This document shows, one piece after another, positions 1-10,358 of a stretch of 14,413 nucleotides of DNA. The translations under genes were made by a program, and so were the position numbers. Where the stretch lies: the IMG/VR virus record IMGVR_UViG_2663762810_000008; one strand, given 5' to 3'. This DNA comes from a virus (Duplodnaviria; Heunggongvirae; Uroviricota; Caudoviricetes). Position 1 is the first letter of the stretch, and each line of letters opens with the position of its first letter. A model generated the notes under the pieces. The model ran no database searches. It had not been told where the DNA came from and worked only from the letters and a program-made list of their open reading frames with translations.

Positions 1-319
1 TTGCCTCCCCCCCGTTGATGGGTAAAATAGCCGCAATTTTTCGTTTTCAACAAGCGCGGCGCGATGCCGCTTACTCAAGAAGAAAGAATTATGACGTTGT
101 CTCCTTATTTGCAAGAGGTGGCGAAGCGCCGCACTTTTGCCATTATTTCTCACCCCAATAATTAATCCCAAATTAAAGCTCTTTTACTCTTTCAAAATCC
201 TTTCAGTTAATTGAGGTCTGGTTATATAACTCATTTAAATACATATAGTTATGTGGCTTCTTTAATTGAAAATTCTTTCATGTAACTTTAAATCGATCAG
301 GTTGCTTTCATCAAAAATC

Positions 320-376
320 TGTACATATGCTTGTACATAATGTACAAAGCAGCAGAGGTGTTTTGCGATTTGTACA
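320..376. promoter_or_regulatory. Four copies of the palindromic hexamer TGTACA (320-325, 332-337, 341-346, 371-376) immediately upstream of the integrase start; candidate operator or integrase/accessory-protein binding array
   Basis: Direct: four exact TGTACA copies within 57 bp ending 10 bp before the integrase ATG at 386. Function is inference. Confidence 0.3.
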
Positions 377-385
377 AGGTGAGTA

Positions 386-1609
386 ATGGCGCTGTCTGAT
401 GCGTGGTTGCGTTCAGTCGTTGGAAAGGAACGTGATAAGGTTTTGGTTAAATCCGATCGTGATGGTCTGTCTGTCAGAGTATCACCGAAAGGTCGCGTAG
501 TGTTTCAATATCGTTATCAATGGGCAGGGAAAGGTGAGCGTCTTGATATCGGAACTTACCCGGCAACTGGATTAAAAGAGGCCAGAGAAGAAGTTATCCG
601 TCTCCGTGGTGAACTCGAGTCAAACCGTAATCCACGATTGGTCAAGCAGGCTGAAAAACGAAAAGCTACTGAAGCCATGACGGTAGAGTCTGTGATCCGT
701 GCCTGGTATGAAGCATATTGTGTAAAAAATAAAAAGGGTTCTGAACAGATACTCCGCTCGTTTGAGCTGCACCTGTTCTCTAAAATCGGGAATATCCCTC
801 ACGATGCAGCTACATTGCATGATTGGTTAGAAGTCCTGGAGCCTCTTAGCACTAAGACTCCAGCAATAGCAGACCGATTGCTAATTAACGCAAAGCAGGC
901 CCATGTCTGGGCGTATAAGAGAAAGCTTATTGAAACTCGCCCGCTGTCGGATATCACGGGTAAAGATATGGATATCCGTAAAGGTCAGAAGAAACGGTTT
1001 CTGACACACGATGAAATTAAAATTCTTTATGCTGCGATCGATGGCTCTAGAATGGTTCCCAAATACCGGGCCTTCATTAAACTATTACTGCATTTTGGTT
1101 GCCGTAGTTCGGAGCTAATTACTGCTAGGGTGGGTGATTTTGATTTCATAAATAAGGTATGGACTGTACCACCTGAACGACATAAGACAGGGGACATAAC
1201 AGGCGAACCGCTAAAGCGGCCCATTATTGAACCGGTTGAAGAGCTTATAAAATACGTTATCTCTATGAACAACGGTTCCGATATGCTTTTTACTAAGGAA
1301 GGAAGCAGGGAGCCAGTCGGTAGGACATCATTACAGTCGCTGCCTTACAATTTAATGCAGTACGCGTGGCGGCGTTTAGGATATCAATTCCCTCATTGGT
1401 CTCTTCATGACTTGAGACGGACAGCACGAACAAATTTTTCTGATCTTACTGCGCCTCATATCGCAGAAATTATGCTTGGTCATAAGCTGCCAGGGGTATG
1501 GCAAGTTTATGATAAGAGCGATTATCTAGAAGAACAGCGTAAAGCTTACCTGGCATGGTGGAAGAGGGTTGAATCGATTGTTAATTGTACTATCTCTGAT
1601 TCAAACTGA
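386..1609 (+). CDS. Tyrosine site-specific integrase, P4-like family
   Basis: 407-aa ORF with ATG start and AGGTGA ribosome-binding site upstream. N-terminal arm-binding-type region (ALSDAWLR...YRYQWAGKGERLDIGTYP), catalytic-region motifs HDLRRT and LGH, and a C-terminal tyrosine region (VWQVYDKSDY) typical of the family. Family call from motif memory, not a search. Confidence 0.9.
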   Translation: MALSDAWLRSVVGKERDKVLVKSDRDGLSVRVSPKGRVVFQYRYQWAGKGERLDIGTYPATGLKEAREEVIRLRGELESNRNPRLVKQAEKRKATEAMTVESVIRAWYEAYCVKNKKGSEQILRSFELHLFSKIGNIPHDAATLHDWLEVLEPLSTKTPAIADRLLINAKQAHVWAYKRKLIETRPLSDITGKDMDIRKGQKKRFLTHDEIKILYAAIDGSRMVPKYRAFIKLLLHFGCRSSELITARVGDFDFINKVWTVPPERHKTGDITGEPLKRPIIEPVEELIKYVISMNNGSDMLFTKEGSREPVGRTSLQSLPYNLMQYAWRRLGYQFPHWSLHDLRRTARTNFSDLTAPHIAEIMLGHKLPGVWQVYDKSDYLEEQRKAYLAWWKRVESIVNCTISDSN

Positions 1610-1894
1610 CGGTTTGTATCACCTGAACATAACCAAATCTCCTAGCACACTTTGAGCGAGATGTGAGCGTTAAGTTTACGCCATTGTGTTGACATAAGAG
1701 GGCACGGGTATAGATATCATCACTATCCCTATGCCCCTAAATCGCTCCTGCTATTTGATAAATGCAGATGTTTACCACCAAATGTTTTTGATACTATAGG
1801 TTGATTCATGATTTACCTAGAAACTTAGTTGTAACGAAAACTTCTTAACGGACACTATCTGGATAAAGTTAGTTTTTTATTTAAGAGGGTTAAC

Positions 1895-2614
1895 ATGTCA
1901 AAGTTAAAAAATGAACCATTAGTAAGGGTATCAGAAGAAGACGGAATAGAAATAAGGAAGATCCAATATCCAGATAATACGATAGAAAGAGTTTATAAGC
2001 AGAAAGGTGTAATATTACCACGAATACCTTTAAAAGGCCGCTTTGTAGAACAATATGTGGCCTTACAGTTGCTGGATAAAGATCTTCGGAATGTTATTGG
2101 TTGGGAGAATATAATAAAAAACATTTGTAATAACATTAATAGAGAACAACACTTTATTTATCCTGATTTAGAAAAGAATCTAATATTAAAGTCTTTATTT
2201 ATATCAAAAGTTGTTACTTACGGTAAGTGTTTTACAGAGGCGAAAGGGCGTCGATTCACATTGCAGAGAAAGCATGTGCCAGAAAAATACAGAGATTTAC
2301 ATGATTCTATTATGAATGTTAGACATAACTTTGCTGCCCATAAAGGTGAATTTGAATATGATCAATGTGGCTTGGTTTTAATATTGCCGGGGACCAAGAA
2401 AAAAAGGTGCTATCATATTTTTTCAGAACTCAATCAAATAAATTATGGTAATAATGAGGAAGATGATGAACGTTTTTTTATGTTATATGATTCACTGCGT
2501 AAAGTCATTAAAGAAAAACGAGATAAATTAATTGATAAAATATACGCTGAAAAGATTCATACTCAAACAATGGAGTATTGGTTGAGCCGAACAGGAAAAG
2601 AAACAGAGATTTAA
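1895..2614 (+). CDS. Hypothetical protein, 239 aa, AT-rich orphan gene with no family recognised; candidate accessory or defence cargo
   Basis: Clean ORF with ATG start and AGAGGG 5 nt upstream. Codon usage is visibly AT-rich (Lys/Asn/Ile/Glu-rich protein) compared with the flanking integrase and early operon. No transmembrane segment, P-loop or other motif recognised; an R-x5-H match (RHNFAAH, aa 143-149) is too degenerate to call HEPN. Confidence 0.6.
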   Translation: MSKLKNEPLVRVSEEDGIEIRKIQYPDNTIERVYKQKGVILPRIPLKGRFVEQYVALQLLDKDLRNVIGWENIIKNICNNINREQHFIYPDLEKNLILKSLFISKVVTYGKCFTEAKGRRFTLQRKHVPEKYRDLHDSIMNVRHNFAAHKGEFEYDQCGLVLILPGTKKKRCYHIFSELNQINYGNNEEDDERFFMLYDSLRKVIKEKRDKLIDKIYAEKIHTQTMEYWLSRTGKETEI

Positions 2615-2896: not shown

Positions 2897-3091
2897 TTAA
2901 TCAATCACTCCCGCAAATCTGTAAATCTTGTGTGATGCCCATTTATTTGGGCAGGATTTAATATCAGGATCTGGAAAGTCAGGCCTGTATTTCTGGCCAG
3001 TTCTCCTGTTTACGCTGTTCCAGCGAAGAACTGTCGATACTGAAACACCACAGAAATCGGCGACTTGTTTAGTTGTCATTAAGTTGTTCAT
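2897..3091 (-). CDS. Excisionase/AlpA-family helix-turn-helix DNA-binding protein
   Basis: 64-aa ORF; segment TTKQVADFCGVSVSTVLRW resembles excisionase/AlpA-type HTH proteins. Start ATG overlaps the upstream stop as TAATG (translational coupling). Confidence 0.65.
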   Translation of the reverse strand: MNNLMTTKQVADFCGVSVSTVLRWNSVNRRTGQKYRPDFPDPDIKSCPNKWASHKIYRFAGVID

Positions 3092-6189: not shown

Positions 6190-6489
6190 AAAAATTCCTT
6201 AATACTGATAACTGGGCGCACTATACACACGTTCCTGAAGAAAGCTATAGTTTTTTGATGGGGTTGAAGATGGCTGGATGTCTAAAATAAACATTGCTTC
6301 ATATGTTCAACTATGCGTTAATGATTGCGTCGGTTTGAAGAACAGACGATATACGAAGTAGTTTACTAAAGCAGTTCTCATTTCAGGTGTTATTCACTTA
6401 TTCCTTCTTTGAGTCTCTCCAATTAAGTACGAAGTCGTTTCTGTTATACAAGCCATTTATGCCGAAAGGCTCAAGTTAAGGAATGTAGA

Positions 6490-6705
6490 ATGTCAAATAA
6501 AATGACTGGTTTAGTAAAATGGTTTAACGCTGATAAAGGTTTTGGCTTTATTTCTCCTGTTGATGGTAGTAAAGATGTGTTTGTGCATTTTTCTGCGATT
6601 CAGAATGATAATTTTCGAACCTTATTTGAAGGTCAAAAGGTTACCTTCTCTGTAGAGAGTGGTGCTAAAGGTCCTGCAGCAGCAAATGTCATAATTACTG
6701 ATTAA
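6490..6705 (+). CDS. cspB: Cold-shock protein CspB
   Basis: 71-aa translation [53 protein letters not shown]... carries the RNP1/RNP2 motifs of the cold-shock domain; AAGGAA ribosome-binding site and a long AT-rich 5' leader. Confidence 0.9.
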
Positions 6706-6986
6706 AATTCATAGTTTGTCTGTATACGATAACGAAGAAGGCTGATGCCTGAGTGGAGATACAGACAGAGTGGTGAATATTGGATCTCTTTAATAAATAG
6801 TAAGGAGGTCCAATACATGAAACAATGGCCAGCATATTTGGCAATAACTTAATCAGGAAAAGTATGCTAACCATTGTGGTGAAGTGCAGGTTTGCTGCAT
6901 GAATAGTTTTACAGCAGAAGCTAACTGCTGGCATAGCAAAACAAAGTGCGTAAGTGGATGACTCCCACAAAAAGTACCACAATATT

Positions 6987-9578: not shown

Positions 9579-9941
9579 ATTAATATTAAATCGGATTATT
9601 TTTAGCGCTGAATGTGAAATTTAAATAAAAAGGACTCTTCCATGAGTCAAAATCCTTGAAATCTTAAGGGTAAGATAAAAGGTCATTAGACAGAATGACA
9701 CGTTTTATTAATAAATAAAGCTATTGTTTCATTCGTGTGTTTTTCTTTACAAAAGTAATCCTTGCTATGGTTGGTTAATCATGCGTTAATGGTGTTCTGG
9801 TTTGTTACAAAATTATCTGAAGCAGTCATTGTTATAATTTTATTATTTGTACCTCTTGAGATCTCCTTGTTGGTTTTTCTCTCTGATATTTTTTTTCGGA
9901 CCATTCTGCCCAAGGGCTAACTTCTTCAAAAGGTAATAATG

Positions 9942-10154
9942 ATGTCTAACAAAATGACTGGTTTAGTGAAATGGTTTAACCCTGAAAAAGGTTTTGGTTT
10001 CATCACGCCGAAAGATGGTAGCAAAGATGTGTTTGTCCATTTCTCAGTTATTCAGAGCAACGATTTCAAAACGTTAACTGAGAATCAGGAAGTCGAATTT
10101 GGTATTGAGAACGGACCTAAAGGCCCCGCGGCTGTTCATGTAGTGGCACTTTGA
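9942..10154 (+). CDS. cspI: Cold-shock protein CspI
   Basis: Translation [70 protein letters not shown] matches remembered CspI. Tandem ATGs at 9939 and 9942; long AT-rich 5' leader. Confidence 0.9.
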
Positions 10155-10358
10155 GGTAGAAAATATTACAAACCATATTCACTTTAGATGCCCGTGTTGC
10201 CATGGTTCTCAGTATAGAACATCATCTTTTGATGTTTCTGACAGGAATCCTTTCGGGGCAAAATGTATCTTTTGTAAATCAATGATGATTACATTTGATA
10301 ATATTTCACAATACTTAAATGTTAGCCGTCTGTCGTTAGATTTAAGAAAGTGAAAATG

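Follow-up and report, generated by a model that had tools for sequence, protein, structure and literature searches.

The question raised by this locus is what role is played by four identical copies of the hexamer TGTACA standing directly in front of a phage integrase gene. The window, meaning the whole 14.4 kb stretch of DNA that was analysed, is the left end (attL) of a lambdoid prophage of ~47 kb located in the 5′ end of Escherichia coli prfC, and the annotation of the complete prophage locus (L001) gives yjjG-prfC as the host context. A promoter-like site upstream of the native prfC start (TTGCCT-16-TAAAAT, 1–28, plus strand, from a consensus scan only) is likely to be the host prfC promoter, now facing attL and int. 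The truncated 5′ end of native prfC (24 codons, 91–165, plus strand) was read from the sequence and is an incomplete coding sequence in the L001 annotation. The 14-bp attL core ATTATTTCTCACCC at 142–155, common to attP and attB, is found as an identical 14-mer at attR (L001 49099–49112) and in the attP of the free phage 2H10 (L002 1257–1270), and carries the annotation of insertion duplication in the record of a Stx2c phage. The P′ arm (156–385) lies between the core and the start codon of int, and in 2H10 it forms one uninterrupted stretch with the core and the P arm. The product of int (386–1609, plus strand) is a tyrosine integrase of 407 aa, in which Pfam recognizes Arm-DNA-bind_3 (DUF4102) together with central and catalytic domains. 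The repeated word TGTACA is distinct from the core.

The four copies are exact and lie at 320–325, 332–337, 341–346 and 371–376. Counted back from the int ATG, which lies at 386, the array thus covers positions −66 to −10, and its final copy adjoins the Shine–Dalgarno sequence of int (AGGTGA, 377–382, plus strand). The earlier note had described this four-copy array and held that it was not random AT-rich sequence, and both statements are borne out. Chance clustering in AT-rich intergenic DNA would be favoured by the 31 % GC content of the array region and by a TGTACA total for the window that is ordinary (5 observed against 3.2 expected). The clustering, however, is not ordinary: the array holds four of the five copies, whereas a first-order Markov model gives 0.08 copies for the 221-bp AT-rich arm. 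In block-wise, composition-preserving shuffles of the complete prophage locus, none of 2000 reached four or more copies per 120 bp, a density that occurs twice in the real L001 sequence. Together with the recurrence of the first two copies as a pair in 48 of 54 relatives, this leaves chance with a negligible probability, and we regard it as already refuted. Separately, an 11-nt direct repeat (GGTTGCTTTCA at 300–310 and GGTTGCGTTCA at 405–415) brackets the array; its second copy is within the int coding sequence and the repeat may be due to chance.

The earlier note had also raised the question of the other prophage end, and the motif is present there. At attR, four further TGTACA copies are found within 115 bp (L001 48916, 48985, 49013 and 49025), just upstream of the phage-supplied prfC start, and the two att arms together hold 8 of the 13 copies in 49 kb. 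A near-identical 22-mer, TGTACATATG[A/C]TTGTACATAAT, is common to both arms in the same orientation, placed 45 bp before the int ATG in one and 17 bp before the surrogate prfC ATG in the other. The free phage 2H10 has an identical integrase and an uninterrupted attP, in which the order is four sites (L002 1074, 1143, 1171 and 1183), the core, four sites (1435, 1447, 1456 and 1486) and int (ATG at 1501), with a site span of 418 bp. Of 5426 complete E. coli genomes, 692 (roughly 13 %) have the P arm of this module at prfC, and substitutions among natural variants of the P arm end about 5 bp beyond the outermost site.

Two divergent free phages with intact attP, mEp234 and Brookers, whose integrases are about 31–33 % identical to the one studied here, also carry words on both sides. 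In mEp234 the word is GTACCA, at 500 and 512, then beyond the annotated core (574–586) at 751, 762 and 785; the P′ copies are all direct, and no further GTACCA copy was present elsewhere in the 2.7 kb examined. In the Proteus phage Brookers, where the core is without annotation, GTACA words form two clusters upstream of int. An alignment scan of viral contigs for divergent attP returned only copies 97–100 % identical. A Pantoea-type viral-contig match (L172) considered as an intact attP was rejected as another attL, and a Pseudomonas-type match (L253) was rejected as it begins at the contig edge.

With respect to the host gene, prfC is split within the segment encoding the GTPase G1 region (window 91–165; L001 49051–49112). 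At attR, prfC is intact with a phage-supplied 5′ end, the new start restoring the gene; the phage DNA provides its own start codon, a different N-terminus and the upstream DNA. Since both the start and the upstream DNA are phage-supplied, release factor 3 would be expressed from phage sequence in lysogens. Several other features of the prophage were recorded. Two LexA-box-like sequences (CTGT-N8-ACAG, L001 48847–48862 and 48875–48890) lie at the right prophage end outside the window, with a dinI-like gene (minus strand) on one side and the P-arm sites on the other; only about 25 bp separate the second of them from the outermost TGTACA. Two extra TGTACATAT 9-mers, matching the extended arm-site word, are also outside the window (L001 47385–47393 and 47429–47437, 44 bp apart), about 1.7 kb from attR and just upstream of a tail-fibre invertase-like recombinase gene. 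Directly downstream of int, a 239-aa open reading frame (window 1895–2614) without a Pfam match is confined to about 70 of some 690 E. coli genomes with this int/att module, which makes it a probable moron (variable cargo) gene. The Rfam cspA thermoregulator has two full-length matches, at window 6329–6768 (156.5 bits) and 9795–10200 (116.8 bits), both upstream of prophage-encoded cold-shock protein genes.

To place the array in a family context, 80 loci with integrase relatives at 30–99 % identity were retrieved. In an unbiased k-mer test against dinucleotide shuffles, GTACA was the top enriched 5-mer in the 300 bp before int. It was observed 61 times against 5.1 expected in 13 prfC-targeting relatives, and 161 times against 24.5 expected in 40 further relatives without a prfC fragment by a strict pattern; under a looser search, a few of those 40 did have prfC fragments and nine had lepA fragments. 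Layout was counted in 54 relatives from many genera with integrases at 39–83 % identity. The layout consists of a tandem pair, NGTACAY-N5-NGTACAYAA, with copies ~12 bp apart and roughly 45–65 bp before the ATG, and a further copy 10–16 bp before the int ATG. A GTACA-type pair spaced by 11–13 bp occurred in 48 of the 54 against 0.69 expected, a start-proximal copy (−35 to −8) in 37 against 10.2 expected, and both together in 32 against 0.31 expected. This layout is kept in the GC-rich Variovorax, Burkholderiaceae, Pseudomonas and Methylibium, where the rest of the region is unalignable. The first base of the pair varies among relatives (NGTACA), and the proximal copy varies at its last base (TGTACN). 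Read against these relatives, the TGTACA palindrome represents the form taken in E. coli by a longer, asymmetric site built on a GTACA core (roughly tgTGTACATAwt).

The same comparison bears on the possibility that the repeats are promoter or operator elements (TACATAAT −10-like boxes) for int and the surrogate prfC, unrelated to recombination. The consensus does hold CATAAT, a −10-like hexamer that in E. coli is inside the site at 332–341, and the shared 22-mer stands a short way before both start codons. In GC-rich hosts, however, the −10-like hexamer loses its last T (CATAAA, CACAAA) whereas GTACA is retained, and the word is seen in either orientation, in elements whose regulators differ, including phages and ICE-like islands. 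A promoter scan gave no sigma-70 match there on the plus strand. Hand-picked −35/−10 combinations were dropped because they were not conserved between E. coli and Pantoea. These observations, and the clade-specific change of the word described below, make a promoter function of this kind very unlikely.

A sister clade of elements targets lepA, the gene of EF4, rather than prfC (L034–L039, L042, L057 and L048), with the lepA fragment at about −260 to −200 of int. In the members from Klebsiella, Enterobacter, Kluyvera and Edwardsiella, insertion is at the lepA 5′ end, and the fragment upstream reads MKNIRNFSIIAHID*. lepA is a paralogous translational GTPase gene and the insertion position is equivalent to that in prfC; the prfC and lepA insertions together imply that, in at least two paralogues, the target of this integrase family is the segment coding for the G1 motif. 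No description of lepA/EF4 targeting by this integrase family was found in the literature searched, and the lepA-type element was absent from the E. coli genome collection. Some members of the clade have a perfect LexA-box-like sequence, CTGTTTGCATGTACAG, at about −115 to −100 of the int ATG (L035, L038, L039 and L042), and two have the variant CTGGTTGCATGTACAG at the same place (L036 and L057). This sequence is just upstream of the arm-site pair and hints at SOS control of transcription entering int.

In this enterobacterial lepA clade the word is non-palindromic but the geometry is the same: TGTCCA-N6-CGTCCA, followed by two inverted TGGACA copies, the final one just before the int ATG. This non-palindromic version shows the sites to be asymmetric, with two direct copies followed by two inverted ones. 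Retention of the geometry through a change from GTACA to GTCCA in one integrase clade also points to a clade-specific protein as the reader of the word, rather than RNA polymerase or a universal host factor. The word is, on this comparison, independent of the target gene: the prfC elements and an Acinetobacter element that targets lepA (L048) carry GTACA, and the enterobacterial lepA clade carries GTCCA.

Transferred by analogy to E. coli, this arrangement would make the sites at 320 and 332 direct and those at 341 and 371 inverted. The first two are candidate arm-type sites P′a (320–325, plus strand; TGTACATAT) and P′b (332–337, plus strand; TGTACATAAT, with the −10-like CATAAT). They form the tandem pair, P′a being supported by the P-arm 22-mer and by the 12-bp-spaced pair in the relatives, and P′b by the sequence and the relatives. 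Candidate P′c (341–346, minus strand) is probably inverted on the model of the GTCCA clade; among the int upstream regions of the relatives, an equivalent copy is limited to the elements of E. coli and Pantoea. Candidate P′d (371–376, minus strand), the start-proximal copy abutting the int Shine–Dalgarno sequence, is oriented from the relatives and from the GTCCA clade. An attempt to orient the individual E. coli sites with a weight matrix built solely from relatives was abandoned, as the flank scores were too weak.

Two proteins encoded near the array are candidates for reading the word. The first is the integrase (Int) itself. Its N-terminal domain matches Pfam Arm-DNA-bind_3 with E=1.9e-16, residues 1–94 are homologous to the crystallized arm-binding domains of HPI and HAI7 (PDB 3JTZ/3RMP and 3JU0), and an AF2 model shows a β-sheet and helix at residues 20–78 with a pLDDT of about 90. 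Integrases inserting at prfC (SXT, the cdt-I phage and relatives) have been assigned to the SXT cluster of the DUF4102-bearing IntSXT subgroup (Smyshlyaev et al., PMC8138268). On the basis of its DUF4102 domain and its insertion at the prfC 5′ end with a replacement 5′ end, the present Int is assigned to this cluster. The second candidate is a 64-aa Xis/AlpA-like protein with a weak Pfam HTH_17 match (2897–3091, minus strand), encoded convergently with int but uncoupled from it and presumed to be the recombination directionality factor (RDF).

If the hexamers were sites for this helix–turn–helix (HTH) protein, its binding would bend the arm for excision and repress int. The proposal draws on the homologues encoded convergently to int in 39–40 of 52 loci of relatives sharing the motif, and on the frequent arrangement of RDF sites as tandem direct repeats. 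There is also a precedent in KplE1, where the RDF TorI binds attL and helps to repress intS (PMC2951348). Conservation was compared in the 29 loci that have the GTACA word and encode both proteins. Within Int, conservation was highest in residues 1–62 (mean pairwise identity 62 %; at least 95 % conservation in 17 of 62 columns), whereas the HTH core averaged 36 % identity with 3 of 54 columns conserved, and its helix–turn–helix segment was widely divergent. The word is invariant across RDF homologues of only about 25 % identity; in most GTACA loci the HTH protein is 17–31 % identical to that of E. coli. Eleven loci with full 2.5 kb flanks have no HTH gene and still carry about three sites each. 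RDF sites are usually confined to one arm, as in lambda, P2 and L5, but the TGTACA copies stand on both arms, and co-variation of the word with the RDF was not seen.

The change from GTACA to GTCCA was used for a similar comparison. The GTCCA clade differs in Int by Q41F, R52K and D54T, at residues that are otherwise at least 95 % conserved and that lie in a β-hairpin (residues 38–58) of the AF2 model, whereas no column of the HTH protein separates the GTACA group from the GTCCA group. This covariation was seen among relatives of at least 39 % identity and involves a single clade, so that it is confounded with phylogeny, and we treat it as a lead rather than proof. A simple residue-to-base code for Q41, R52 and D54 is countered by one locus (L075) that has F41, Q52 and S54 yet carries GTACA(C).

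A better candidate for RDF sites is a second repeat in the P′ arm, CTTTCA, which occurs on the same strand at 189, 200, 275 and 305 (189–310, plus strand) between the core and the TGTACA array. Finding any hexamer in at least four copies has P of about 0.07 in the corresponding test, and the repeats are partly conserved in Pantoea; by inference only, they can be proposed as sites at which an accessory protein, the RDF for example, would bind. The CTTTCA copies are embedded in 20-nt direct repeats (191–210 and 266–285). With both the divergence of the HTH protein and the two-arm arrangement against it, we consider binding of the TGTACA copies by the RDF to be quite unlikely.

The copies are clustered and present on both arms, and their conservation follows the integrase through different genera, GC contents and target genes. 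The word appears to follow the N-domain of Int rather than the target or other genes, because GTACA is found across targets and the N-domain is the most conserved part when set against the HTH protein. The interpretation that we favour, with good confidence, is that the TGTACA copies are P′-arm arm-type sites for the DUF4102 domain of the adjacent Int, and that they probably also repress int. Of the claim in the earlier note that the array consists of protein-binding sites, the part naming arm-type sites for Int is supported by the presence on both arms, the attP of 2H10 and the family-wide conservation. The part naming the 64-aa excisionase-like protein is disfavoured, as that protein is highly variable at an invariant word and as the copies are on both arms. 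The part naming autoregulation of int is plausible from the position of the array and from the KplE1 example, although the promoter scan located no promoter for it. We infer binding by Int, the orientation of single sites in E. coli and the regulatory effect.

Under the arm-type reading, the N-domain of Int is predicted to bind the P′-arm TGTACA copies, and with four copies on the P′ arm and four on the P arm, Int protomers would bridge arm and core DNA. On the paradigm of lambda Int, N-domains on the arm sites and C-terminal domains on the core would build an intasome of roughly 420 bp, which would recombine the core ATTATTTCTCACCC with the prfC 5′ end. A search for matches to the IHF consensus with at most one mismatch found none in attP.

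For the regulation of int, no sigma-70-like promoter on the plus strand and no terminator were predicted between the core and int or across attP. The lack of a predicted promoter between the core and int suggests that int may be read from outside. In the integrated state it would be read from the native prfC promoter (the promoter-like site at 1–28), and in the excised state across attP from the P-arm promoter of the surrogate prfC. For such read-through, bound Int would be a roadblock. Occupancy by Int probably damps the transcription entering int, giving negative autoregulation, because the array fills the last 66 bp before the gene and its last copy touches the ribosome-binding site.

Read-through is also relevant to a further proposal, in which the inverted hexamers pair in the int leader RNA, hiding the ribosome-binding site or attenuating read-through. 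The minimum-free-energy fold pairs 320–325 with 332–337 and 341–348 with 369–376, and the change from GTACA to GTCCA is matched by one from TGTAC to TGGAC, which would preserve pairing. The int leader of ICEKp1 is a precedent (PMC13023037). Over the whole P′ arm (156–400) the RNA folds better than shuffles (z=−2.68, 2 of 200), but the local fold has no such advantage (z=−0.83, with 41 of 200 shuffles folding as well) and its stems are of 6–8 bp only. Inverted protein sites are in any case trivially self-complementary. RNA pairing also leaves unexplained the 12-bp direct pair, the four P-arm copies and the all-direct P′ copies of mEp234. A search of Rfam gave no match in window positions 1–2000. 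Pairing of the leader RNA is accordingly a highly improbable account of the hexamers. As a separate observation, the main contribution to folding of the P′ arm comes from a hairpin around 201–271, and this fold could be of consequence should transcription from the prfC promoter extend into int, comparable to the leader stem-loops of ICEKp1.

A more speculative extension of the arm-type reading is that the paired arm-site module is a switch coupling Int occupancy to expression at both junctions, including that of prfC. The P′ arm would gate transcription into int, from the prfC promoter when integrated or the surrogate-prfC promoter when excised, and the P arm would act through the 22-mer standing next to the phage-supplied prfC start. 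We regard this switch as doubtful. If it were true, release factor 3 expression would be under integrase control in the E. coli genomes with the module, roughly 13 % of the total.

Whether a temperate element recombines, and in which direction, depends on its arm-type sites, yet these are poorly defined in the large DUF4102 (IntSXT) group, whose members mobilize Stx and Cdt phages as well as the SXT/R391 resistance ICEs. For the prfC-inserting cluster, the present analysis offers a site model with a GTACA core, a 12-bp tandem pair and inverted start-proximal copies, on both arms and over about 420 bp, which holds from Enterobacteriaceae to Burkholderiales. GTCCA represents a natural specificity variant and may offer a first handle on a recognition code of DUF4102, for whose arm-binding domain we know of no solved DNA complex. 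The model should help to delimit attP and attL in prophage annotation, and it points to possible control by the integrase of int and of the phage-rebuilt prfC. Arm-type sites and attL-linked autoregulation of int are in themselves already well known. A published TGTACA/GTACA arm word or layout for the prfC/SXT cluster was not found in the searchable literature, which is absence of evidence only.

Compared with known systems, the arrangement resembles the attP of lambda in having a short repeated non-core word on both arms with a tandem group, an integrase with an N-terminal arm-binding domain, and a separate xis. The lambda arm-type word is C/AAGTCACTAT, whereas the core of the word here is GTACA. 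Eight candidate sites here extend over about 418 bp, compared with five in lambda over about 240 bp (P1, P2 and P′1–P′3). The present int points away from attP with the sites in its 5′ region, and the IHF consensus was not found in this attP, two further differences from lambda. The DUF4102 arm-binding fold itself differs from that of lambda by an extra strand and helix (PMC8138268). In the lambdoid phage Φ24B, the minimum attP is 350–427 bp and integration is independent of IHF (PMC7581858), which is similar to the 418-bp span and the IHF result here; arm sites are not defined in that study.

The SXT/R391 ICEs are closer in their integrase, and SXT likewise supplies a replacement 5′ end for prfC. 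Their integration module (Hochhut and Waldor 1999, cited in PMC8138268 and PMC4344509) shares with this element the DUF4102-bearing integrase cluster, insertion in the prfC 5′ end and convergent xis and int genes. The present element differs in being a lambdoid phage, and int of SXT requires the activator SetCD and the promoter Ps003. No published arm-site motif for SXT was found in the literature searched. ICEKp1, whose integrase is a different IntSXT member inserting at tRNA-Asn, undergoes state-dependent promoter switching of int (PMC13023037). A similar arrangement may apply here, with the host prfC promoter driving int when integrated and a far-end promoter acting across attP when excised.

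A mechanistic analogue is KplE1 (CPS-53), in which the arm-type P′ sites of IntS in attL overlap the intS promoter and repress intS (Panis et al. 2010, PMC2951348), and in which negative autoregulation by IntS and TorI has been established experimentally. KplE1 was set aside as a sequence homologue, IntS being 22 % identical and its attL being without TGTACA. It also differs in targeting the tRNA gene argW rather than the 5′ end of a protein-coding gene, and in having a mapped promoter. The two elements are alike, however, in that the 5′ end of int adjoins attL, the P′ sites are upstream of int and the int and RDF genes are uncoupled.
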